Of a stretch of DNA of 64,000 nucleotides, positions 2,692 through 58,478 are shown one piece after another (position 1 is the first letter of the stretch; each line of letters starts with the position of its first letter). Location of the stretch: the IMG/VR virus record IMGVR_UViG_3300024272_000072; one strand, 5' to 3'. The notes under the pieces were generated by a model that was given only the letters and a program-made list of their open reading frames with translations, ran no database searches and was not told the DNA's origin. Source of the stretch: an uncultured virus (IMG/VR IMGVR_UViG_3300024272_000072). Its lineage: Duplodnaviria > Heunggongvirae > Uroviricota > Caudoviricetes. The position numbers were made by a program, and so were the translations under genes.

Positions 2692-3921
2692 ATGAAAATT
2701 TTCAACCGGAATATTTCAAGAATCAATAAAAAGAGCATTGCAAAGAATTATTGATTGGATTTGTCTTTGTTATTCAATAACGATGTTGTTTTTTCAAAAC
2801 AAACATTTTACGATCTATACGCAAAAAACGGTGATATTCGCCAAGCCGTAAAGAAAATTGCCGGAAGTGTTGCGAGAAATTGAATATATTTACAAGACAA
2901 CGACAGACAAACCGTTGACGATAATGTTTTAACGGATCAAGTTTCAGATTTATTTAAAGCTCCAACATTTGCAAAGTTCAAAATTGATTTATACAGAAAT
3001 TATTTAATTTCATGAGAATTATATATTAAACCATTGAAGAATGCTTTTGATGAAACGATCAGATTTGACGTTATAGATTCAAGAGCAGTTACAAAAATAA
3101 TTAGTAATGGTGTTATTACATGATACAGAGTGGTTGAAAAAGACGGTGTAAAAATTCAAGAATATAAAGCCGATGAAATCGCATATTTCAAATATGAAAA
3201 CGATATAAACAATTCGTTAAATGGAATGTGAATTTTAACGAGCGTATTATATGACGCGGTGTTGGATTTGGAAGCATTGAAAACGAATTACAGTTTATAC
3301 AAGAACAGTGCAAGACCAGATATGTTGTTATTGCTTGACGGAAATTTAAGCGAAGAAGAACAACAAATCGCAACGGATAAATTTAGAGCACAATTTACAT
3401 GAAGCAACAACGCACATAAAGTTATTGTTGGGGGCGGAATTCAAGATATTAAAACACTTTCATTGACCGCAAGGGACATGGAAACAATAAGCCAAAGGAA
3501 ATTAACAACGGAAAAAATAAGTGCAACGTTTGGAGTTCCAAAAGCGATGTTATGATATGTTGAAGATGTAAATTATAATAATGGACAAAACCAAAAGGAA
3601 GAGTTTTTGGAAGGAACAATAAAACCATTCGAGCAAGATTTCGACGCAATATTGAATAAATTATTGCAAATGTTCAAGCCGGATATATTCAACAAATATT
3701 GGATAAAATCAGATTCCGAACAATTAAAGGAAACGCAAGAATGGTTGAATGGACAAAGGGCGGACGTGTTGGCGTGAATAATAACAATAAACGAAGCAAG
3801 GGTTGACAGATGATTGGAAAAGGTGGAAGATGAAAACGCCGACAAATTAATTACTTCAAGAAATCAAGTATTATTGGAAGATATAGCATTGGACGCAGTT
3901 TTACCATGAGATGAAATATAA
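2692..3921 (+). CDS. Portal protein, HK97 family
   Basis: NGMGILTS, YKNSARPD, GSNNAHKVIVG, ISATFGVPKAMLG, GIITINEAR motifs. Confidence 0.9.
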
Positions 3922-13834: not shown

Positions 13835-14838
13835 TGATCAGATACGATATAAAAGCATATACAAAAGAAGGGACATATATTACAACTATTAATCCAAATG
13901 TTGTTATGAATGACATATCTTTTTCTTCAAACGTAAACGGGGGGCTTGGACAATTGAATTTAAACCTTGCGTTGAGTTTTGGGGATACAACGTTTCATGG
14001 TGGGGAAATAATAAAAGTGATACTTTATAATGAAAGATACAAGCAAGGAAAACAGATTTATATGTGATTTGTTTCGCAGATTTCAAGGGTGTATGATACA
14101 AACAAAGGATATATAAAACTGGTTTGTTTGTGAATTGCGAGTTTATTAACAAGCGTATTATTTACATGATCATATAGTGGAACGGCGGAAATAATATTGA
14201 ATGCAATTATTGCGGAGTTCAACAGCAATTACGCTTGAAGTTTAATTTCAGTTGGTGGAATTGATGAATACGAAGAAAATATAAATGTGGAATTTAAAGA
14301 TTGAACAAGTTGCCAAAAAGCAATCGAGCAAGTAAACGAAATCGCCAATTATTACCGGTTTATAAATGCAGAGTGAAAATTTTATTTCAGAAAAAAGGGA
14401 ACACAAACCGAGCACATCATGGCGAATAAACAAGAAGTTGAAAGCATGAATTTAAATTACAGCATTGAATCAATTGTAAACAGAATATTTGTCGCAAGAA
14501 AAGACGGAACAGTAAAAATGTATGAAGATGATATTTCGCAAAGTTTGTATGGAATAAAAGAAGAATACAGCAACCAGCAAAGCATAGTGGACGCAACAAC
14601 GCAAGACGAATTTGGAAATAATTATATCGCCCAATATTCAAATCCGAAGAATGCAAGCACGGTGGTTGTAAATAGCGAATACGATATTGAAAAAATTGAA
14701 CCGTGAGACACAATAACAATTGTAAATTCAGAATATGAAATAAAGAATTTAACAATTGAAAAAATAAATTATTCTCCAAGTAAAGTTACGTTGACTTTGG
14801 AAGAAAACGAAAGTTTATGGAGTGTAATCAGTGAATAA
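13834..14838 (+). CDS. Baseplate hub/Tal-like protein
   Basis: Synteny; SQSLYGIKE, IEPGDTITI. Confidence 0.6.
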
Positions 14839-14873
14839 AAGCCAAATTATTTTACATCTTATTATATTATATC

Positions 14874-17366
14874 ATGGTATTTGTGAAATTCAGAAACACC
14901 AATAATGCAAGTTCAACACTTATTGCCGATATATCAGCAAGTGCAACAGCATTATTAATTAAAGATTGAGATCAATCTTTATTTCCAACTCATTTTCCAT
15001 TTCTTTTGACTTTGGAACATTTGGATTCGGAAGAAAATGTTATTTTAAGGGAAATCGTAAAAGTAATATGAAGTAATCAAAATTCATTTACAGTTGAAAG
15101 AAGTGCGGGGGTTTGTGTTCAAGACGATACAGCTTCAAACAGAAGCCAAGACAACACAGCACATGCATTTTATTCATGAGATAAAGTTTCACTTTATTGG
15201 ACAGCCGAACAAGTAAGGGATATTCAAGAAAGGTTGGAAACAAGCGTAAACGATCCAGCAATTGCGGACGAATACGATAATACAGCAACATATGCAGTAT
15301 GAGATATTGTAATGTATAAAGGGGACAGATATTCATGCTCAACAGCCGTTTCAACACCGGAAGAATTTGACAGCACAAAATGGACAAAAGTTGGTGTTCA
15401 ATGCAACCTTGATTACATGCAACAAGAAATTGATTATTTAATGGCTTGAAGTGGTGCAACATCAGACCACCTTGAAGACCGTGGGCTTGTTTGAACGAAT
15501 TATGATATAAACACGGATAAATTATTCAGACAATTAACGCCAACATACGAAAACGCAACAAATGCAGTAAATATTGGAGATATAAACGACGATAAAGAAA
15601 TACACATTCAAAGACAAGGAAGTGGGACACAAAGCAATAAATTAAAGTTAAAAGTTAAATTGTGATGATCACCAACAACAAGTTTAATTGTGGAAGTTAG
15701 AAAATGAATCAGCGTAATTGATAGCGACACATGAGAAAGTTATTGGTATGGTGATTCAAATAATATAATAGCAACCGCAACTTTACCATATACAGATTTT
15801 GATTCAAACCGAAAAGACGTTGAAATTACATTAAATAATTCTTTTGGTTGAACCGAAGGGGAATTATTGGATATTGTATTATATCAAACAAGCCACACAG
15901 TAAATGCAAGCAATTATTATATTATTGGAATTGATTCAACACAAAAAAGCGACGCTTTTCAATGTATAAGAGTAAACGGAACAACTTATAAAAGAACACA
16001 TTTAATGCCGTATTGTATTTCGGATTGATTCGCAAGTATAATGATGGAACGTGTAACAACAAGCGGTGCATATGCATTGCCAAGAGTTCAAGCAACACTT
16101 GGAGAAATTACAAGGGTTACAACATACGGAAGACACATTGACGGAATTTGGCTTGACCACAATTCAGAAAGCACAATTGAATATATATCGTCAAGATATT
16201 TAACAATGACAATGTATATTGACGAAAGCAAATCTGATCCAAGCCAAATGATAACATATGGGGACGACGCAACAGATATGACAGCCGGAAGTTCAGATTG
16301 GGACGATTTCTTCGGTTATAGACCTTGTTTGTTGGACGCAAGCGGAAACGTTTATAAATATTTGAATCCATTGGATTATACAAAAGATATTGATTGAAAC
16401 GATGTTTCAAATTACGTAACTGGAACAGACGGAACATATAACGTAATGGTTGAATTTCCAAGGCGTGGTTTCAAAATGAGTAAATCATGAAGTATAATTA
16501 CAGTTTCAATAACAGACAATCCAGCAGATTACGCAAATGGTTTCCATTATTACGCACATACAAGGTGACCAGTTGATTTGAGCCAAGATGATACAAGTGC
16601 AAGTGAAATCCAATATGCAAAGGATTATTTCTATTTGGGAGCATATAAATGATATGTGCAAGATTCAAAATTAAGAAGTATAAGCGGAAAAATACCAACA
16701 ACAACGATTTATATTTATGACGCAAGAACAAACGCAAGAGCCAATTGAACCGGTTACGAACAAAGCGGATTTTATCAATTGGAAATCAGAAAAGCATATT
16801 ACGCAATGAAATATAAAAACATGAATTCGCAAGCAACACTTGGACGCGGATTTGTGGATAAAACAAGCGGTTGGAGTTCTACAAGTTGCCAAACATGAGC
16901 AACAAATTCAAGGTGATTGGATTATGGTGTAACAAGCACGGGAACGGACGTTTCTGTAAATAGAGTAAAATTTGCATGAATAGAAGATCCACGGGGAAAT
17001 GTTTGGGAATGGATAGATTGAATAAATTTAAACAATTACCATGCATATGCTTCATGCGACGCAGATAACTGGGTGCATGATTCAACAGCAACTCCATATT
17101 ATGATATTTGAACATTACCAAGCACATCAGATTCTTATATTAAAACAGTGCTTTGAACAACAAAAGGTTGATTCTTACCAGCAAGCGTCGGTGGAAGCGA
17201 TTCAACTTATTATTGCGATAATTACCGAGTTAATTCCGGTGCTCGCGTCGTGCTATCCGGTGCGTCTTGGAGTGATGCGTCGAAAGCAGGGGCTTTTGTG
17301 ATGGATCTGAGTTATACTTCTTCGGATCGTTACGCTATTTTCGGGGCTCGCTTGATGTTCCTTTAA
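14874..17366 (+). CDS. Tail fibre/receptor-binding protein; DGR target (C-type-lectin/FGE-like C-terminus)
   Basis: 830-aa frame; CBM5/12-like YDNTATYAVGDIVMYKG..KW; GIEDPWGNVWEWIDG; ends GASW..AGAF...FGARLMFL containing the VR. Confidence 0.85.
17235..17356 (+). repeat. DGR variable repeat (VR), phage A
   Basis: Aligns ungapped to 17631-17752; 23 mismatches counted, all opposite TR adenines. Confidence 0.95.
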
Positions 17367-17381
17367 TAGGAACATCAAGTG
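17349..17381. promoter_or_regulatory. Hairpin/cruciform at the VR 3' end (candidate DGR target-recognition element)
   Basis: CTTGATGTTCCT-ttaat-AGGAACATCAAG perfect 12-bp stem with the stop codon in the loop. Confidence 0.6.
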
Positions 17382-17409
17382 AACGTTTTAATTCACTGGT
17401 TCAAACAAA

Positions 17410-17577
17410 ATGGAAATCAAAATAATAATAAATACGGTTGAAGAAAAAGACGAAGAATTGATACTTTGACCGGATTGAATCCGAAGGGAAAGTAAAAAGC
17501 CAAAAATTGAAATAGTTGTAAACCAAAACAAAAAAGAAGAAAATAAAATCGAAAAAATTAATATTGATGAATTATAA
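17410..17577 (+). CDS. Small 55-aa protein in the avd position of the DGR
   Basis: MEIKIIINT...; positional homolog MEIKITIET... at 51175-51324. Confidence 0.6.
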
Positions 17578-17590
17578 AAAATATATTCTT

Positions 17591-17900
17591 GGGTAACGGA
17601 GAAACCGATATAAAATGAAGCAAAAATTTCAACAGTACTCACGTCGTGAAATCCAGTGCGAATTGGAATAATACGTCGAAAGCAGGGGCTTTTGTGATGA
17701 ATCTGAATAATACTTCTTCGAATCGTAACACTAATATCGGGGCTCACTTAATTTCCAAAACCATGTCAAGCTTGTTTTATTCCAAAAGAGTAAAGCGAGC
17801 AAATTAAAACGGCTCCGTTACCTTGGCTCTTGCCAAAACATAAAAACTTTTAAAGCCGTGTTAGTAGGTAATCCGAACGCTTGGTGACATGGAACATCAA
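17591..17900 (+). ncRNA. DGR template RNA (TR 17631-17752 plus structured spacer)
   Basis: AAT/AAC-rich TR; 5' GGTAACGGAG pairs with CTCCGTTACC (17813-17822); TGGCTCTTGCCAAAACATA shared with phage B. Confidence 0.85.
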
Positions 17901-17906
17901 ATAAAA

Positions 17907-18992
17907 ATGAAAACACACTGAAACTTATTTGAAAAAATAACAGATATTGAAAATATCAAAATTGCACATTATAACGCAAGAAAAGACAAAACATTTTATG
18001 GATCAGTAAGGGAAGTTGACAATAATTTGGAGAAAGTTGCCAAAGAAATTCAAGAAATGCTTGTAAATGAAACATACGAAATAAAAGAAAGTGATTATTC
18101 AACGGAATTTATAAACGATAAATGAAAAGAAAGAAGGTTGGATAAATTACAATATAATCCACATCGTATTGTTCAACGGGACATAACGCAAGCGTTAGAG
18201 CCGATATTCATGGAAGTATTTTGTAATTTCACATGTGCAAGTTTAAAAAATCGTGGTATACATTACGCATATAAATTGATGAAAAGATACATGAAAGATA
18301 GGGATTGAACGAAATATTGCTTGAAAATAGATATTAAAAAATTCTACCCGTCAATTGATCATGATATATTGAAACAATTATTAAGAAGAAAAATAAAAGA
18401 TAAAAAAGTATTAAGGTTATTGGATAAAACAATTGAAAGTGCTCCATGATGAAAGGGTGTGCCAATTTGAAGTTATTTATCGCAATATCTCGCCAATTAT
18501 TACCTTGCATATTTCGACCACCGGTTGAAAGAGAAATTACATGTAAAATATGTTGTAAGGTATATGGATGATATTGTGATTTTTAGTAATAGCAAAGAAT
18601 GGTTGCATGAAATATTGGGGAAAATTCAAGAATATTTGCATGAAAATTTAAATTTACAAGTGAAATGAAATTATCAAATATTTCCAACGGAGAAAAGGGG
18701 CGTGGATTTTGTGGGTTATAGGTTCTTTTATGATTACACACTTTTGAGAAAAAAGACAGCAACAAGAATGAAAAGGAAATTAAAACGAATCAAGGAACAT
18801 AAAACAGACAAAAACGAATTATTAAATTATTCGGAATGGTGCAGTATTAACAGTTATGTTGGGCGAATTATTTATTGCGACCATTACAGATTGTTTGAAA
18901 AATATATTGATCCAGTAAGAAAAAGTTTGAATAGATATTATTTTTATGTGATTTGTGAACAAAAACGAGAAAAAATTGAAAAGGTATTATAA
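17907..18992 (+). CDS. DGR reverse transcriptase
   Basis: YCLKIDIKKFYPSIDH, GVPIGSYLSQYLANYYL, YVVRYMDD, GVDFVGY, SYVGW. Confidence 0.95.
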
Positions 18993-21242: not shown

Positions 21243-21299
21243 AAAAATAAGATTTTGCATTTTGTAAGAAAAAAGATATATTACATTTGCAAGTGTGTA

Positions 21300-21330
21300 A
21301 GACAGAACCGCAAGTTCTGTTTTCTTTTTT
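21300..21330 (+). terminator. Intrinsic terminator
   Basis: AGACAGAAC-cgcaa-GTTCTGTTT then T run. Confidence 0.6.
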
Positions 21331-21461
21331 ATTCAAAAAATCAGTTGCACATCGTAAAATGTGCGATTTTATCTTGAAATAACTATTGACAAAAATTAAA
21401 ATATATACATTGCATAAGTAAAACGTAGAGCCAATATTATTTATTTGCTTTTATTTTTAAA

Positions 21462-22511: not shown

Positions 22512-22539
22512 TTGCATTTTAAAAATTTTTGTATATAAT
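22512..22539 (+). promoter_or_regulatory. Early sigma70-type promoter
   Basis: TTGCAT-16-TATAAT; same boxes and spacing at 58007-58034. Confidence 0.6.
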
Positions 22540-22544
22540 AGACA

Positions 22545-22733
22545 TTGTTAAACAAGATACACATTTGCGAAATTTCTTATTCTTGTTATTCAATAACACT
22601 TATACATTCGATATGGTGAGTGTGTGGAAACAAGCCAACAGAAATAAAGCAATGTGTATATAGCCACATTGCTTTTTCATAATTACTTATGCATAAGGTT
22701 CTACAAGTGAAAAGCAAGGCGATTGTTTAACAA
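22545..22733 (+). ncRNA. Structured early-leader RNA (putative trans-acting regulator), phage A
   Basis: Perfect 11-bp closing stem TTGTTAAACAA/TTGTTTAACAA starting at the expected TSS; inner stem 22669-22679/22708-22717. Confidence 0.55.
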
Positions 22734-22757
22734 AGGAAACAGAGCTTGCGGATCACG

Positions 22758-22820
22758 AAAGCGACCATATGAGTCAACTGGGCGACCGCAAGCGTTTCAG
22801 TTGATTCATATGGTCGCTTT
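22758..22820 (+). promoter_or_regulatory. Long hairpin in the early leader
   Basis: AAAGCGACCATATGAGTCAACTG pairs with CAGTTGATTCATATGGTCGCTTT. Confidence 0.6.
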
Positions 22821-22890
22821 AATTTGTGAAAATTCACATGTGAATCAATGCTACTACACACCATTTTATTTTCTGTATGAAACAAGGATC

Positions 22891-25220: not shown

Positions 25221-25459
25221 CACAAACAAAAATGATAACATACACAAAAAACAAAATTATTTCCGACAATAGCGGGAAAACAAGGAGTGTGGAAATTGAC
25301 GAAATATTATGATCTGTAAAAAGCAAAAGTTGGTTTATAGCAAGAATGAGAATCGCTTTATTGCTTTCAAAGAAATTGGAGCTTGAAGGAAAAGACGCTT
25401 TAATGGTTGCAAGTTCCATGCGTGCAGATTATGAAACTTTTTATTCTTTAATTTAACAC

Positions 25460-26224
25460 ATGACAAATCAAAACTACAAGAATTTAATTAAATATGCAAT
25501 TGCGTTTATAGTGGTAATTTTATTATGAGTATTGGTGGTTGTATACGCAAGCAACAAACAAGAGCCAATCCAAAAAATATTAAATCAGATTTCAGAAAAT
25601 GAAAACCAATTACAATTATTGGAAGAAAAACAAGCGGAGTTAAACAAAGCAAATGATGAAGCAAAAGCAAAATTATTGAATGAATATGGTTTACAATTAA
25701 CAAATTCGGAAATTCCGAATAATGAAGAATGGACACCATGACAATTAAACGAAAGCGGAGACGCACAGCAAATGCCAGTTATTGAATCAACAACGGAACA
25801 TGAAAGGTTTAAAGAATTAGCAAATGCATATGGTCTGAACCCGTCAACAATATGGGAAGTTGAAAATCATTATTGAATCAAGGAAGGTGTGATTTTATGC
25901 ATAACAGTTGCGGAAACAAGCGGTTGAAATCGTGGTTACGGTTGAAAAAACATCGGAAGTGTTGGAAGTAACGACAGATGAGACCGCCCAACATACGCAT
26001 TAATGGAAGCTTGACTTGAAGCAATTGGGAAAACATTGAACAACCAATATTTGTGAAGTAAAAAAACTCTTGGTTGTCTATCAAACGCCGGAAGTTGTAA
26101 AGAAAACAACGACAACGGTAAAAGATATGCAACAAGTGAATCAAGCCGAGAAAAAAACATGGTTGCATGTTTGAGCACAATTTATTGATCTATTAATGCC
26201 AGCGACTTTGGTATTAGAAGATAA
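25460..26224 (+). CDS. Membrane-anchored lysozyme-like (glucosaminidase-type) protein
   Basis: N-terminal TM, coiled coil, ILCITVAETSGG..KNIGSVG...YATSESSW; homolog 61353-62159. Confidence 0.55.
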
Positions 26225-29960: not shown

Positions 29961-30123
29961 AAGCCAAAAATTTTAACATGAAACAATGAATATGTTAAAA
30001 AATTTAACATGAAAAGAAAAAATAAGATTTTGAAAACAGCAAGGATTTAATTATATTCTTTGTATGCATAAGTAATTAAATTCTTGTAGAACCTTTGATT
30101 TATATTCAAAGGTGTTTTCATTT

Positions 30124-30573
30124 ATGACGAAAAAAGCCAAAAACCCAAAAATTGATAAAAAAAAATTGAATGATGAAAATGTGGAAATTGCCAAATTAAT
30201 TGCAAAGGTAAGGGATAAATATACATGCCAGCATTGTGGGAAAACAGCCAAGGAAACAGCAATACATGCAAGCCACATAATAAACGAAGCAAGAGATCAT
30301 AGACTTGCCAGCGATCCGGAAAATATAAAAGCATTATGTTATAATTGCCACATAAATTGGCGACATAAAAGCCCGATTGAAGCAAGCGAACGGTTTAATA
30401 AAAAGCGACCGTGAAGATATGATAAATTACAAGAAAAACACGTTGAATATATGGGTAAATGAAGCATTGACGTAATACGAATAATTGAAAGGAATAAATG
30501 GTTAAGGGAAATTTGCGAAGAAATGAAAATTGATATTTCAAAATTCAAGTATGGCGCAAAAATTGATTTATAA
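30124..30573 (+). CDS. NinG/Rap-like HNH endonuclease
   Basis: RDKYTCQHCG, HASHI, NIKALCYNCH. Confidence 0.7.
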
Positions 30574-47505: not shown

Positions 47506-47796
47506 ATGGCGATAAATGACTGAAATTTCACAACGATTTGTCCGTTAGCATATACAGACATCGAAGTTCACTATTGCAAAGGTTGATGATTTATGACTTG
47601 CCGACAATGAGTTGATAATCTATGAAATCAGCTTCAATGATGAGAAGTGCGTTTGTTCAATGACAACCCAACAGACGTTCAAGCACCATTGATTTGATGA
47701 TATGAATTCGACCACCGAGAATTCACAGATTCAAATTGATGTCGTCAATGCGTTTCTGACAACCCTATTTCTTTACTTACTTGTAGAACTTCATAA
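47506..47796 (+). CDS. Small Cys-containing tail-region protein
   Basis: Open frame in the recoded code. Confidence 0.5.
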
Positions 47797-49475
47797 TGAC
47801 TACATATTGTTTAGACCCAAATTCGACGTGGTTTGCGGTATATACTTTGAACACGTGAACAATGCCGACAAAAAATGTTGTGAGTTCACAAATCACAGCA
47901 AATCTGAACACAACTGCAACGTCTATCACAATCACAAGTTGAGAATGAGCGTTGTTCACAGCTTGAATGATTGCAACAATCGAACAAATAAATTCTGAAT
48001 GAAAAGCAACTGCAAGAGAAGTTGTTTTGATTTCAAACGTGAATTCAAACACGCTGACAATCACAAGATGATATGAGCAATGTGTGATGAATGATACAGC
48101 AACGCCAAAAGTTCTTTGAAATACAGCACAAAGCTTCACAAGTTGAGCAAAAATTTCAGTTTATGTTTCAAAAGCTTTATTGAATTGAGTTCAAACAAGA
48201 ATCAGTCAAATCAATGCACCTTGCAATACGTGTGTATATAATGAAGCAATGGCTGTCAATGATTGTGTATTGAATAATTGCAACGACCGACGAGACAAAC
48301 TATTGAAAACAAAAGCTTGTTGTTGCTACAATGACAAGTGATTTTGAAGTTGATGTGATTGAGATTGCACAATGTCTTGAAACGTTTTTCTTTGTGCTTC
48401 AAGAGAATATGAATTCAACAATCTGACAATTCAATCGTGAGCGTTAGTCAGATTTGAATGACAATGAGTGCCTACGATTAGAGTGAAAAGATGTTTCTGT
48501 AATTTGTGAACGATAGATTTGAGATGATGAACATTCGTCTGATGTTGTTCAAAAACAGACCCATATTCAAATATGTGAGTGTGAAACAATGCTGATTCAA
48601 CAGCATACAATTCAATGTGTTTCTGATGTTGATGATCGTGAAAATGATGATGTAATTGATGAAACGCAACGACTTGATGTTGATGAAATTGATGAAACGC
48701 ACAGAACTGATGTGCAAGCGTGCCAGCAACTTGTGCCGATTGATATAATTGATGAAATTGAGCAGAATGAGAATCTTGCCCAAGAAATTGACGACAATGT
48801 TGAAGTGGTGGTTGATGATGATGATACTACACTTGAAACTGATGAAACTGATGATATTGAAGCAGTTGAAGTGCGTTAGACAATTATTCAATGGACTGAT
48901 GAAACTGATGAAACTGATGAAATGGTTGAATCTGGTGAAAATGATGAGACTGATGACCTAATGGAAGCTGATATGCTTCTTGATGTGCGTGAGATTGATG
49001 AAACTGATATATTTGATGAAACTGATGAAGTTCATCTTGATGACGTGATTGTATGTCGTATTGACACGCTTGAACTTGATGAAACTGAATCATTCAATGA
49101 TGAAAATGATGAGAAAGCAACAAAGCAATGTCAACAAGATGATGACAATGATGAAATGCAATCAACAATATGTATTGATTCAGATTGTATGCTTGCGAAG
49201 TATTCAACAATATGATTTGTTCGAAATGATGACAATGATGAGCTTGATGATGTAATTGTATGCTAAGTTCATATACAGCTTGATGATGAAATTGATGATG
49301 TTGAGCAAATTGATGAAAAGTGTTCATTTGATATTTCAGAGATATTACACAATGATGTGTTGATGTGAGCTGATGAAGTTGATGAGCTTGATGAAGTGCA
49401 AGTTGAAGTTGAAACAGCTGATGTCCGTGAGCAAATTGAAGTGATTGATGTTATATGATTTGCAAAATTATGTAA
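47796..49475 (+). CDS. Gly/Cys-rich tail fibre or adhesin with GGxGGx repeats
   Basis: 559-aa frame only if TGA=Gly; second copy of the anchor domain, then many TGA-TGA-NNN repeats. Confidence 0.75.
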
Positions 49476-49498: not shown

Positions 49499-51163
49499 AT
49501 GGCGAATGCGTGATGTATAAATGCAATCTGATATGATTGATGTTATATCAGAACATTGCAGAATCTTGATAGTTCTGATATTTGAACTGGTGTTGAATAT
49601 ACAGCACCAAACCCACTATGAGACAGAAATTTCGACTATATCAAATACACAGATAAATGTTGAAATACTTGTTGCTTGACGTGAGAAAATGAAATCAACA
49701 TAATCACAACAAATTGAGTTCTGAAAGATTTGAATCTGACAAGCAATCAAGACAAAATCATAATCACACGAACTGATTTATTTTGAAGCAACCGAGCAAA
49801 AACAGTCGTGAGATATTCAACATCGTGATACCCTTCAAGCAAAACAGATTGAACGCTTGTTGTTGAAGAAACAACGAAAAATCAATATTCTTCAACTTGA
49901 TACAATCTAACTGTTTCTGATAGTTGAACATATTATTTTTCAGCGTTCGCACTTGATTCAGATTGAAATGTAATTTGAGCAGCACAAAGCAACATTGCTG
50001 TATCTTTGTCAAAAGTATTGACTTTCACATTGAATCAAACACAATCAGTACCTTGAAGTATGATTACAGCGATTTCTGATGACGCAATCAATATGACACA
50101 GCAAGAAGTGATTGATTTCATTTGAGCATACCCAGTCTTACTTGACAATTCTTGAAACGAATACAAAAAGCTAAACCCTTTGAATTTCCAACAATTTGAA
50201 GATTGAACAGACGCAAGTTCATATACAGCTTCAACATCATACGATGTGATGATAAAATTTCCAAGAAGATGATACAAAATCAGCACAACGAACAATATCA
50301 CAACATTCACATTGACTGATAAACAGAATGACCCAGAATATTGCTACGCACCATTTCAAAGACTTTCAAGCTGAACATTATGAAACAGCAATGCAGTATA
50401 TACAAATGCGTCAGCTTTCTATCTTTGAGCATATAAATGATACGCAAATTCAAATATTTTGAGAAGTCGATACAACAAAACGCCAACAGCTTCACAAACA
50501 ATTTGAACATTCTCTTGATACGCAAGAAATCATTGAAATCTGCGATGAATCACAGAATTTATGCAAGAATTCTATCTTGAATTGTGTTTTATGGCGATAT
50601 ACAAAACAACAGACGCACAAAGTTCAATTTGACAATGATATGTATGATGAAGTTCAGCACCAACATCGTGAACAATGACATACAATAAATGAATGACATA
50701 TTGAACAAGTTCAACGACACAATGTATGAAATTCTTATGAATAGAAAATCGATATTGATGAATTTGGGAGTGGGTGAACTGACGATGACAGACTTCTGCG
50801 TGAGTTCATATTTCAATACCTACAACAACGTGAGACAACAGAACTTCGACATATAGTTATACGCCTACTTGATACACAACAGTTTGAAGCATATCGCCAA
50901 CATCTTGAAGTTATATCACGAAAGTATTATGACACACGTATTGATGATTCACGCCAACAACAACTTGATGAAGTGAAACGACATACTTCACAGATTACTC
51001 TCGGCGGGCTTCGGGTTCTCGTGTGGCGGTATTCGGTGGTGCGTGGGGTGACGGTGCGAGATGTGGTGCTTTCTGTTGGTATTTGATTGGTGCTTCGTCG
51101 AATTCTTACTCTACTTTCGGTGCTCGCTTGATGTTCTTGCCGAATTGAGATTTATCTGTATAA
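49499..51163 (+). CDS. DGR target receptor-binding protein, phage B
   Basis: DVMIKFPRRGY, FYLGAYKG, GIENWYGGIWEW; C-terminal VR. Confidence 0.85.
50990..51136 (+). repeat. DGR variable repeat, phage B
   Basis: Ungapped match to 51387-51533; 31 mismatches up to 51127, all at TR adenines. Confidence 0.95.
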
Positions 51164-51174
51164 TCAAAAACAAA

Positions 51175-51324
51175 ATGGAAATCAAAATCACAATTGAAAC
51201 AATACCAAAAGAAAAAATATATGAAATGACAGAAGATTGAATGAAAGAATCTGAAAACGAAAAAGTCGAAATGACAATCAAAGAATGAGATGATTGAGAA
51301 ATCATCATCGAAAAAGATGAATAA
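51175..51324 (+). CDS. Small acidic 49-aa protein in the avd position
   Basis: Positional and N-terminal homolog of 17410-17577. Confidence 0.6.
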
Positions 51325-51330
51325 AAATAT

Positions 51331-51686
51331 GGGTATTAGATACTGATATTAGAAATTCCACGTTTGTGCCAAAATCTAAAAGTGAAAAAAATTACACTCA
51401 GCAGAATTCAAGTTCTCGTGTAGCGAAATTCAGTGGTAAATGGAATAACAGTGCGAAATGTGGTGCTTTCTATTGGAATTTGAATAATACTTCGTCGAAT
51501 TCTAACTCTAATATCGGTGCTCACTCAATGTTCAAAAAATTCTTGATATGGAATATGATGTTTCACCGACATCATATTTCGAAATTAAAGCTCATATCTG
51601 ATACCCTGGCTCTTGCCAAAACATAGAAACGTTTTATTTGGAGTCGTGCAAGTAAGAAATGAAAACTCGACCGTAAAGAACATCAA
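51331..51686 (+). ncRNA. DGR template RNA (TR 51387-51533 plus spacer), phage B
   Basis: GGGTATTAGATA pairs with TATCTGATACCC (51595-51606); hairpin 51550-51580; TGGCTCTTGCCAAAACATA. Confidence 0.85.
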
Positions 51687-51693
51687 CAAAAAA

Positions 51694-52797
51694 ATGAAAA
51701 CTTATGACAATTTATGGAATAAAATTATTGATAAAAACAACATATTGAATGCACACTACAACGCAAAAAAAGACAAATCGCATTATCAAGAAGTCAAGAT
51801 GGTCGAATCAAATCTTGACTTTTTTATAAATGAAATACACGAAATGCTGAAAAACAAAACATATATCATTGAAGACATTGACTATTCAACGTCTGTGATA
51901 AATGACAGCTGAAAAGAAAGAGAATTGCGAAAATTGAACTACTACCCACACAGAATCATACAACGAGCAATTATGCTACAATTAGAGCCAATTTTTATGG
52001 AAGTATTATGCAATCACGTGTGTGCAAGTCTGAAAAAAAGATGAATTCATCACGCATTCAAATTGACGCAAAAATACTTGCAAGATGAATGACACACAAC
52101 ATATTGTCTGAAAATCGATGTGAGAAAATTCTACCCAAGCATAGACCACGAAATATTGAAGCAATTATTGAGAAGAAAAATCAAAGACAAAGATGTGCTT
52201 GAAATTCTTGATATGATTATTGACAGCTACCCTTGAACAAAATGAGTGCCAATTTGAAGCTATCTTTCACAGTATCTTGCGAATTATTATCTTGCATATT
52301 TCGACCACCGAATGAAAGAAGAAGCGAAATGCAAATACACAGTCAGATATATGGACGACATCATCGTTCTGAATGAAAGCAAAACACGACTTCACGAAAC
52401 ATTAGACAAAATCAGAGAAGAACTTTCAGATTTGAAACTTGAAATCAAATGAAACTATCAGATTTTTCCAGTCGATAAAAGATGAATTGATTTTGTTTGA
52501 TATAGATTTTTTAGAAATTTCACATTGTTGAGAAACTGAACAAAAAAGAAAATGAAGAAAAGATTGAAAGAAATCAAAGATGAAAAAGCTGACAAACACA
52601 AGCTTTTGAATTACAATGAACGGTGCAGTATAAACAGCTACGTTTGACGAATGTTGAGTTGTAATCATTACAGATTATTTATGAAATACATTTTGCCATT
52701 GATTCCAAGTCTTGACAGATATTATTTTTTTGTTTTATCACATCGCAACGAGAAAAAATTGAAAAAATATCACGAAAAATTGATGAGTAAGATATAA
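51694..52797 (+). CDS. DGR reverse transcriptase
   Basis: YCLKIDVRKFYPSIDH, GVPIGSYLSQ, VRYMDD, GIDFVGY. Confidence 0.95.
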
Positions 52798-56244: not shown

Positions 56245-56277
56245 AAAAAGCACCACAACGGTGCTTTTCTTTTTTTA
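56245..56277. terminator. Bidirectional intrinsic terminator
   Basis: AAAAAAGCACC-acaac-GGTGCTTTTCTTTT between convergent genes. Confidence 0.65.
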
Positions 56278-56760
56278 TCTCAAATCTTTACAAGCCCAGA
56301 TTTCTCTTTTATATGCAGAACATCGATATATATTCACATCATTGACATAAATATAAACTCTTGCTTGGTCTGATAAATCTTCATCAGCCAATTCGTTCGA
56401 TAAATTTACAGATTGCCCCCTTGCAATAAAATCAACTGTGTCTTTGATTCATTCAATGTTTGGAGTTTCTGAATAATAAATATTCAAATCTGCTTCTTTA
56501 CATTCATCTTTACAGACTACTTTCACAAATTCAGATTGTTCAGCTGAAAATAATTCCGTGATTCTATCAATTCTTGCTTGAACAACATTTCTCATTTTTT
56601 GAGTTTTTGTTGAAACATAAGTTGAAGATGTTGAATTTGACGTTGTTGAAGTGTTTCAATCTTTCGCAAGACTGTTCAATATTCAACAAACAAAGATGAA
56701 AACAATCACTCGAAATCGCCATTTCTTATGCAATGGCTTTTTTGCCTTTTCTTCTGCCAT
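56275..56760 (-). CDS. Membrane-anchored extracytoplasmic protein (possible superinfection exclusion)
   Basis: MAEEKAKKPLHKKWWFWVIVF (CGA=Trp), TM, Ser/Thr linker; only minus-strand gene recognised. Confidence 0.7.
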
Positions 56761-56912
56761 TTTGAACGACTTATGATATAAATGAAATCAATATACAGAA
56801 TCACTTTCGAATGTCAATAGATTGACATTTGACAAAAAAAATATATAAATATACTCGTTGACATAAGCTTATGAAACACACAAATCTTTTTATATGCTTA
56901 TGTTTTTTATCA

Positions 56913-57854: not shown

Positions 57855-58040
57855 AATTCCAACAGCGAAAATATCATTAAAAATAAAAAAGTCAAAACTT
57901 TGTCATTTTTTTTCGTTTCAAGGCTTCATACCTGCTATTTGAAAATTCAATTAAGAATTGATTTTTTTCGATTTAATTTTTTTTATAAAAAAAAGTCGTC
58001 AAAAATTTGCATTTTTGGAAAATTTTTATATAATAGATTT

Positions 58041-58181
58041 CAGTTAAGTTTGAAAATCGAATGAAAATGTCTTTGATTGCAAAAAATTGATGACTTTTTT
58101 CAAGAGATTATTCGTATCGTCAAGGTTCTACAATTCCGAAGTAGCTTATGTCAACCGATACGACAGCAACAAACTTGACTG
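58041..58181 (+). ncRNA. Structured early-leader RNA, phage B
   Basis: Closing stem CAGTTAAGTTTG/CAAACTTGACTG just after TATAAT; inner stem TCGTATCG/CGATACGA; loop shares AAGGTTCTACAA with phage A. Confidence 0.55.
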
Positions 58182-58478
58182 TCGTTCAATATCACATCAT
58201 ATTTAATTCCGACAAACAAAGATGTTGAAATGAACGACACAACATCTTTGTTCGTCTGAATTGATTTGTGTGTAAGATTCGAACGAACAAAGGTTCGAGT
58301 CTTTTTATTTAATCACAAAATCAGATGAGAATCAGATGAGTTGTTGCAATAGTTGTGAGCATTATTGTGTGAATGTTCACGCCAGCTGGACTATATGTAT
58401 ATACGATTCCGTTTCTCATTTGATGTATGTGATGAAAAAAAGTTCGAAAATTTTATTTCAATTTTTTCTTCAAGCAAG

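Follow-up and report, generated by a model that had tools for sequence, protein, structure and literature searches.

The question raised by this locus is how a phage that carries an integrase gene, and for which no repressor can be recognized, controls the expression of its late operon and of the integrase gene itself. The window, i.e. the whole analysed stretch of 64,000 nt, had been described in a first-pass annotation as encoding a structured RNA at the start of the early operon, complementary to the leader of the integrase gene and to a terminator ahead of the late genes, and a role as RNA-based life-cycle switch was proposed. In agreement with the first-pass annotation, no repressor, Cro or helix-turn-helix protein was found among 44 proteins searched with Pfam, 21 searched with PHROGs and 16 searched with NCBIfam. 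Most of the early ORFs (ten or more) match no family, and a regulator could be hidden among them.

Based on the Pfam annotation, the same gene order occurs three times head to tail in the window, comprising terminase, portal, MuF, protease, capsid, tail tube, tape measure, Dit, DGR target, reverse transcriptase, holin, lysin, integrase, leader and a DUF6291-like gene. The window thus contains three tandem related siphophages (A, B and C; Table 1), the sequences of which have diverged despite their common gene order. The assumption of one complete 33-kb unit had to be given up: this unit is one of three tandem phage genomes, and the 33.8-kb direct repeats flanking it are not unit ends, but the variable repeats, template repeats and RT-17 RNA of two diversity-generating retroelements (DGRs). 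The template repeat lies about 396 nt downstream of the variable repeat in both cassettes. For the RT-17 RNA an Rfam match was obtained at 17819-17904 only, and the second copy near 51597 is visible just as an 87% repeat. The junction from phage A to phage B is also present in a 37-kb viral record and in a 32-kb genome contig.

Gene calls with translation table 11 were rejected, as the ORFs came out fragmented and short. Reading TGA as a sense codon leads to long genes, and its translation as glycine appears to fit best, because the integrase motifs read TGLR and GKGG under code 25 and because a glycine-rich ORF (47796-49475) comprises 121 TGA in 559 codons. This ORF, a late gene of the tail region, represents an extreme use of the recoded stop codon. 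Code-25 prophages of Gracilibacteria and Absconditabacteria have been described previously (PMC10746230), and the words repressor and lysogen are not used in the available text of that paper. Two further observations concern the surroundings of the integrase genes. Phage C carries a minus-strand ORF between lysin and integrase (56275-56835, at most 186 aa), which has no counterpart in phage B and for which Pfam and NCBIfam gave no match; a moron or a regulator would both be conceivable. Between lysin A and the integrase promoter (21254-21368), a promoter-like site (21254-21282), which resembles as a repeat the region upstream of the late promoter, is followed by two terminator-like hairpins (21299-21323 and 21343-21368). 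This arrangement could give a very short transcript or could just represent the operon ends.

Table 1. Coordinates of the phage genomes, retroelement cassettes and predicted regulatory features in the window.
Feature	Position	Strand	Description
Phage A	window start to ~21.3 kb		
Phage B	~21.4-56.3 kb		
Phage C	from ~56.4 kb		
DGR cassette 1	14817-18992		variable repeat 17239-17356 in C-terminal end of target gene; template repeat 17635-17752; reverse transcriptase
DGR cassette 2	49499-52797		variable repeat 51015-51132 in C-terminal end of target gene; template repeat 51412-51529; reverse transcriptase
Integrase promoter and 5' leader, phage B	21374-21464	+	predicted; TTGAAA-17-TAAAAT 21374-21402; X 21411-21421; Y-like GTAGAGCC 21425-21432; ATG 21462
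Early promoter P_E, phage B	22511-22539	+	predicted, 10/12 match; TTGCAT 22512-22517, 16-nt spacer, TATAAT 22534-22539
Closed 5' domain of early leader	22545-22733	+	11-bp closing stem 22545-22555 / 22723-22733
Internal terminator-like hairpin T1	22646-22680	+	upstream of X'Y'; T-run
Words X' and Y'	22680-22707	+	X' 22680-22695, Y' 22695-22707; complementary to late and integrase leaders
Long hairpin T2	22745-22825	+	23-bp arms 22758-22780 / 22798-22820; before first early gene (ATG 22891)
Second antisense element, early operon	25454-25504	+	overlaps start codon and first codons of early gene 25460-26224
Late promoter	30030-30057	+	predicted, 10/12 match; TTGAAA, 16 nt, TATATT
Late-operon 5' leader	30063-30126	+	X 30063-30078; Y 30083-30095; hairpin 30091-30113; T-run; ATG 30124 of HNH/NinG-like gene
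Integrase 5' leader, phage C	56857-56917	+	X 56857-56869, a 13-nt complement of 58143-58155; ATG 56915
Early promoter and leader RNA, phage C	58007-58309	+	Y' 58122-58133; X' 58143-58155; terminator 58275-58309

For the early leader of phage B, the TTGCAT-16-TATAAT promoter and the 11-bp closing stem of the first-pass annotation were both recovered by direct reading of the sequence. The promoter is conserved in phage C at 58007-58034. Since the promoter scan as a whole was no richer than shuffled sequence (40 promoters found compared to 44.5 expected), all promoters and transcript ends given here are predictions. For the 291-nt leader, a folding energy of -97.1 kcal/mol (z -8.5) was obtained, a stability reached by none of 200 shuffles. 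Between A and B, the consensus fold of the leader comprises 65 pairs, 6 of them with changes on both sides. This consensus fold did not predict the 11-bp closing stem, which is kept in an A-type relative via a change on both sides (read by eye). T2 showed three pairs changed on both sides between A and B. T1, which was called on the minus strand by the terminator scan and forms a stem followed by TTTTT on the plus strand, is found in the A-type with a different sequence at the same place, one pair being changed on both sides and one on one side. The words X' and Y' had been described as exposed by an inner stem; this holds in part, as they are only partly unpaired in the predicted fold.

A conserved leader peptide was dropped as a candidate, since nothing equivalent to the short ORF at about 22614-22664 is present in the leader of the A-type. 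The same applies to a minus-strand promoter before the leader copy, for which no convincing -10 and -35 elements were seen by eye and none was listed by the promoter scan at 22700-22760. As a separate observation, one related-phage contig (run X20) has a different hairpin with T-run joined directly to the conserved X'Y' block at 22680, which fits a modular terminator placed ahead of this block. The Rfam scan of the window at gathering threshold gave RT-17 at 17819-17904 as sole match, and permissive scans of both leaders (E up to 10) yielded generic hairpin matches far below the gathering scores and no C4, IsrK or sar. The leader RNA is accordingly not regarded as a member of the C4 family, to which it had been likened.

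The two words of the early leader have their counterparts at the very start of the late operon. X' is the exact complement of 30063-30078 over 16 nt, and Y' is the exact complement of 30083-30095 over 13 nt. The hairpin at 30091-30113, with a G+C-containing stem and followed by the T-run GTTTTCATTT, is predicted to be terminator-like by the terminator scan, and it carries AAGG in the 3' arm of the predicted fold. Y overlaps its 5' arm, exactly as had been claimed for the complement at this position. Taken alone, the 16-mer match was reached by 8 of 500 shuffled leaders. The longest exact word is in general an insensitive statistic, as only the 16-mer of phage B stands out, the other four cases being reached by 99 to 489 of 500 shuffles. 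The pairing was judged by unbiased phage-wide scans, which replaced single-letter shuffles of pre-chosen targets. With an order-free two-word score, the late site was first of 13,756 windows (26 compared to 15-16 for the next independent site). Treated as a collinear duplex, leader and late site of phage B ranked second of 6,870 windows with a z of -4.0, which is not an outlier, and in the reverse scan from the late leader of B the early leader came only fourth. X' and Y' of phage B stand in non-collinear order relative to the words of the late leader. This same-order arrangement of the words, previously called unusual, was found for the A, B and D types, while the C-types showed the ordinary antiparallel collinear order.

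Relatives were found via the gene downstream of the leader. This retrieved phage B again (the 37-kb viral record and the genome contig), C-type phages (L142, L143, L144 and L148-L150) and a D-type (L152, L153). A scan with the late-site module yielded 13 true members among 52 matches, including A-type phages with leaders; a 14-mer leader scan of viral contigs was unspecific, with none of the 80 fetched loci being a family member. Both partners are available for three C-type, two A/B-type and one D-type phage, the three C-type phages being relatives and not independent cases. The late site of phage C lies beyond the window and was read from a near-identical C-type contig (L150). All types share one plan, in which the integrase gene is followed by a consensus-like promoter, a leader of about 190-290 nt, hairpins and a terminator, and the early genes, and the 5' end of the leader is closed by a long-range stem in every type.

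The C-type phages give the clearest picture of the contact. Their leader consensus fold comprises 64 pairs, of which 7 show changes on both sides, and it presents Y' followed by X' in a largely unpaired region. Since the late leader presents X followed by Y, the two are antiparallel and collinear. Their complementarity is nearly unbroken over about 50 nt, and the duplexes of the leader with the late 5'UTR amount to 39-49 pairs. When the leader core was scanned against the whole phage on both strands in 70-nt windows, the late leader was the best partner in all three C-types, with z values of -9.3 (L150), -8.5 (L142) and -6.7 (L143) compared to -3.0, -4.6 and -4.3 for the next best site. The reverse scan likewise placed the leader first in the same three phages (z -8.9, -9.2 and -8.6). 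A matrix of three leaders by three late sites gave -48 to -55 kcal/mol for the cognate duplexes and -30 to -43 kcal/mol for the non-cognate ones, the cognate duplex being the best in every row and column. The middle segment between the words does not align between the C-type phages, yet its cognate pairing is the most stable: considered alone, it gave -6.6 to -12.5 kcal/mol for cognate and -0.7 to -4.4 kcal/mol for non-cognate combinations. Column-wise intermolecular covariation among the C-types is poor, as the 31 shared pairs consist of 24 invariant pairs, one with a change on one side, one with changes on both sides and five non-pairs or gaps. The transitions, four compatible with G-U and two leading to A-C, show no clear excess and do not separate selection on RNA from a conserved DNA inverted repeat.

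A different kind of comparison is offered by the D-type. In L153, the late operon (NinG by Pfam) is encoded on the opposite strand, and the site has changed its orientation along with the operon. The site is still antisense to the leader RNA, and hairpin, T-run and ATG are kept; compared to phage B, the late hairpin is retained with two pairs changed on both sides. Altogether, the copy in the early transcript is antisense in all four types, i.e. in five of five phages with leader and late site, including the one with the inverted operon, while the spacing of X and Y varies from 6 to 18 nt and the word order is permuted among types. Taking these comparisons together, the idea of a contact in trans between early-leader and late-leader RNA is well supported by the relatives.

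Within the C-type leader a further complementarity was noted at 58215-58292 of phage C, where a hairpin has a 3' arm (58246-58255) with a second complement in the terminal terminator, spanning loop and 5' arm of the latter (58283-58292). This complementarity is preserved with different letters in L019/L142, and it possibly represents an antiterminator alternative.

Phages A and B carry a second antisense site, about 2.9 kb into the early operon. In phage B, 25474-25498 can form a collinear duplex with 30065-30089 (23 of 25 positions paired) and is the top partner of the late leader among 6,948 windows (z -7.4). The best collinear partner of this late leader is thus the second site and not the early leader. 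The homologous early site of the A-type is the top partner of the late leader of A as well (z -6.0), with 24 of 24 pairs. The X-Y spacers of A and B differ by four substitutions, and for each of them the early site carries the complementary change. Independently of this site, the A-type phage L155 shows a second copy of Y' at 3232-3251, which makes up the region of ribosome binding (AAGG, spacer, ATG) ahead of the first early gene. The word Y of the late and integrase leaders could therefore pair with this start site, too.

Compared to the late operon, the link to the integrase gene is less pronounced. The words described in the first-pass annotation do recur in the integrase leader of phage B, TGCATAAGTAA at 21411-21421 and GTAGAGCC at 21425-21432. 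Chance alone is expected to produce single exact words of 11-13 nt, and shuffled leaders give matches of 12 nt on average, so that the 11-nt integrase word alone is not unusual. Accordingly, the 11 + 8 nt of phage B are not separable from background, and the early leader is not among the top five partners of its integrase 5'UTR, making the link weak in this phage. Among five phages, the leader was the top partner of the integrase 5'UTR in two, clearly in L143 (z -6.4) and marginally in L142 (z -4.3), and the second-ranked partner in phages C and A. In phage C, a hairpin with T-run precedes the ATG (z -3.4), and X is its 5' arm. Overall, the hairpins of the C-type integrase leaders reach z values of -3.1 to -3.95 with X as 5' arm, and two of the three (C and L142, not L143) possess a T-run. 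The X' word of the early leader repeats the 3' arm of this C-type hairpin.

Considering the target leaders on their own, the predicted folds of all late leaders comprise an inner hairpin with Y as 5' arm. The 3' arm of this hairpin holds AAGG in the B, A and D types, and in the C-type the T-run simply follows. Most of the predicted late-leader folds also comprise an outer stem, which joins X at the 5' end with the region of the start codon. In all cases Y, or X in the C-type integrase leaders, overlaps the 5' arm of a hairpin located before the start codon.

These observations lead to the following model. A structured and terminated non-coding RNA would be produced from the consensus-like early promoter, which is located downstream of the integrase gene and ahead of the early genes. 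Parts of the early transcript, namely the leader in the C-type and the leader together with the second site at the start of an early gene in the A and B types, would be antisense, in trans, to the initial 30-50 nt of the late mRNA and to a weaker degree also to the integrase mRNA. The free late leader would hide its own expression signals, as Y would pair with the 3' arm bearing the Shine-Dalgarno (SD) sequence and X with the start-codon region. By occupying X and Y, the early RNA would prevent the hairpin and thereby allow read-through into the late operon, its translation, or both, and the outcome would be an early-to-late switch made of RNA. Since the early RNA would cover the inhibitory half and not the ribosome site, activation is predicted. 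The complementarity, its position and orientation, the co-evolution of the partners within each phage and the hairpins can be read directly from the genomes. From these we infer that RNAs with the given ends exist, that they pair in vivo, that pairing activates, and that the early RNA acts as regulator and the late leader as target. That the early RNA pairs in trans with the late leader, and perhaps with the integrase leader, and opens an inhibitory hairpin has, in our estimation, an even chance of being correct. Of the control over late genes and integrase by a trans-acting RNA, as it was originally put forward, the contact with the late leader is upheld by the relatives, the integrase part does not stand to the same degree, and the term life-cycle switch is an interpretation.

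The same pairing would also be compatible with reversed roles or with a negative outcome. The late and integrase promoters could be constitutive and give rise to terminated RNAs of about 55 nt, which would repress early functions in an immunity-like manner, or RNase III could destroy both partners; both versions together are considered unlikely. RNase III cuts duplexes of 39-49 bp, which is the length observed for the C-types. Furthermore, the late leader has the usual shape of a trans-acting sRNA, namely a 5' single-stranded word followed by hairpin and T-run, and its best partner in A and B includes the start codon of an early gene together with the codons that immediately follow, so that a duplex there would block translation. 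However, the paired words of the late and integrase leaders consist of the anti-RBS and the 5' arm of the terminator and not of the RBS, so that pairing should open expression, and the partner in the C-type lies in the non-coding leader without covering an early start codon. A precedent for a terminated late-promoter RNA is known from Shiga-toxin phages, for which the available text describes a short regulatory RNA that arises by early termination at a constitutively active late promoter (PMC7547250). Both directions of control could also hold simultaneously.

Other explanations place the function of X and Y at the level of DNA. They could be operators of an unrecognised phage or host protein, located at the integrase and late starts and inside the early leader. 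This is regarded as quite improbable, even though X lies at about +1 of three predicted promoters, the usual position of an operator, and ten or more early ORFs have no family match. A joint change between phages would also be expected of the operators of one repressor. A perfect 12-bp palindrome in the B leader (22686-22697) has a counterpart at the integrase site of phage C, but these are its only occurrences: it is broken in the A-type leader and absent from the C-type late sites. Operators with a fixed half-site spacing are also difficult to reconcile with an X-Y spacing of 6-18 nt, a permuted order, and a C-type complementarity that continues through the 'spacer' for about 50 nt and co-evolves. 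The second copy in a coding region with compensatory changes, the constant antisense orientation of the early copy (all four types, 5/5 phages, inverted operon included) and the lack of an HTH protein in Pfam, PHROGs and NCBIfam point in the same direction. With a similarly low probability, the matches could be inverted repeats of DNA without function as RNA, i.e. duplicates of promoter and leader kept similar by recombination, or sites at which the early region inverts. The inverted copies lie 4.6-8.7 kb apart on either side of the early genes, a tyrosine recombinase gene adjoins the leader, and the transition test (4 compared to 2) does not favour RNA pairing. Nevertheless, the copies of the D-type are in direct orientation as DNA and still antisense as RNA, the words of the A, B and D types stand in permuted order, and an identical crossover core of fixed spacing is missing. 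The copies moreover begin exactly at the predicted 5' ends of transcripts and overlap hairpin arms, and no inversion joint between the sites was seen in the related-phage contigs of runs X17-X20, which as scattered pieces provide a weak test. Because the sites are located at predicted transcript starts, keep a constant antisense orientation, overlap hairpin arms, are free in spacing and order and co-evolve by segment, selection at the RNA level can be argued for.

Returning to the pairing of the early RNA with the late leader, a more far-reaching version would be that development is governed by RNA-RNA contacts alone. The early transcript and the self-terminating late and integrase leaders would then be mutually antisense, with the early RNA as an anti-terminator and translation activator in trans, replacing an activator of the Q, Ogr or sigma type, and the leader RNAs feeding back on the early genes. 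This would constitute a two-state switch without a protein repressor, in which the X word sets the specificity of A/B versus C. Such a scheme is put forward tentatively and is rather doubtful.

A comparison with known systems showed similarities to several of them. By its complementarity to distant sites, which goes beyond chance and is conserved in relatives, the early leader would belong to the trans-acting antisense RNAs in the general sense. The c4 antisense RNA of P1 and P7 (immI) carries the complementary words a'/b'. As far as the available descriptions go, it resembles the early leader in being a structured phage-encoded trans RNA which acts on other genes of the phage and possesses two separate complementary words. 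In contrast, c4 represses, while the opening of a hairpin is predicted here, and its target is an antirepressor instead of late-operon and integrase leaders. The CI RNA of P4 derives from a leader, is transcribed from a constitutive early promoter and acts by base pairing without a protein repressor, and a leader-derived early RNA that acts by base pairing is predicted here as well. The sites of CI lie in the same leader and cause premature termination, while those predicted here lie in other operons at the 5' arm of a terminator, and anti-termination would result. In line with this difference, the complements found within the present leader are hairpin arms only, and the X/Y complements are located in the integrase and late leaders. 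In pT181 and pIP501, an antisense RNA decides on the formation of a terminator in the nascent leader, and a comparable control over a leader terminator is predicted here. Those antisense RNAs are encoded in cis and induce the terminator; here, the RNA is encoded in trans and would prevent it.

Concerning the target, the 5'UTRs in DsrA-rpoS and RNAIII-hla sequester the RBS in a hairpin, the anti-RBS arm of which is the pairing site of the sRNA. The late leaders of B, A and D show this anatomy in the predicted folds, with an SD-hiding hairpin and the regulator on the opposite arm, as expected for a target of an anti-antisense activator. DsrA and RNAIII are host sRNAs with short seeds and mostly depend on Hfq, compared to duplexes of 39-49 bp, a hairpin that is also similar to an intrinsic terminator, and a phage-internal system in the present case. 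According to the available text, IsrK of Gifsy-1 is a prophage RNA generated by termination in a leader, which switches on a translationally inactive mRNA in trans (PMC4825925). Its origin by leader termination and its activation in trans correspond to what is predicted here. As described there, the target of IsrK is a read-through isoform of its own transcript and the effect is indirect via an antiterminator protein, unlike the separate late and integrase transcripts of the present phages. Lambda OOP, P22 sar, lambda aQ and StxS are presented in the available texts as RNAs that shape lysis-lysogeny or derive from terminated phage transcripts (PMC12197685, PMC7547250). OOP, sar and aQ are cis-antisense repressors there and StxS acts on host targets, which differs from a pairing between early and late leader. 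Altogether, the system would work most like the anti-antisense activators and IsrK of Gifsy-1, and by the tests made it would be a member of none of these groups.

Known phages activate their late genes by proteins, i.e. by antiterminators, activators or sigma factors. Unlocking of the late operon by an early RNA, through pairing with the leader of this operon, would, if true, be a different solution from these protein activators. To our knowledge, anti-termination in trans at an intrinsic terminator by an sRNA is hardly documented. The literature searched, including the available text of a 2025 review on phage sRNAs (PMC12197685), contains neither an early-leader RNA that pairs with the leader of a late operon nor anti-termination in trans by an sRNA. 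Since the 5' leaders are short, the idea is directly testable by reporters in ordinary laboratory bacteria despite the recoded TGA. If confirmed, it would be the first regulatory circuit proposed for phages of Gracilibacteria/Absconditabacteria-type hosts.
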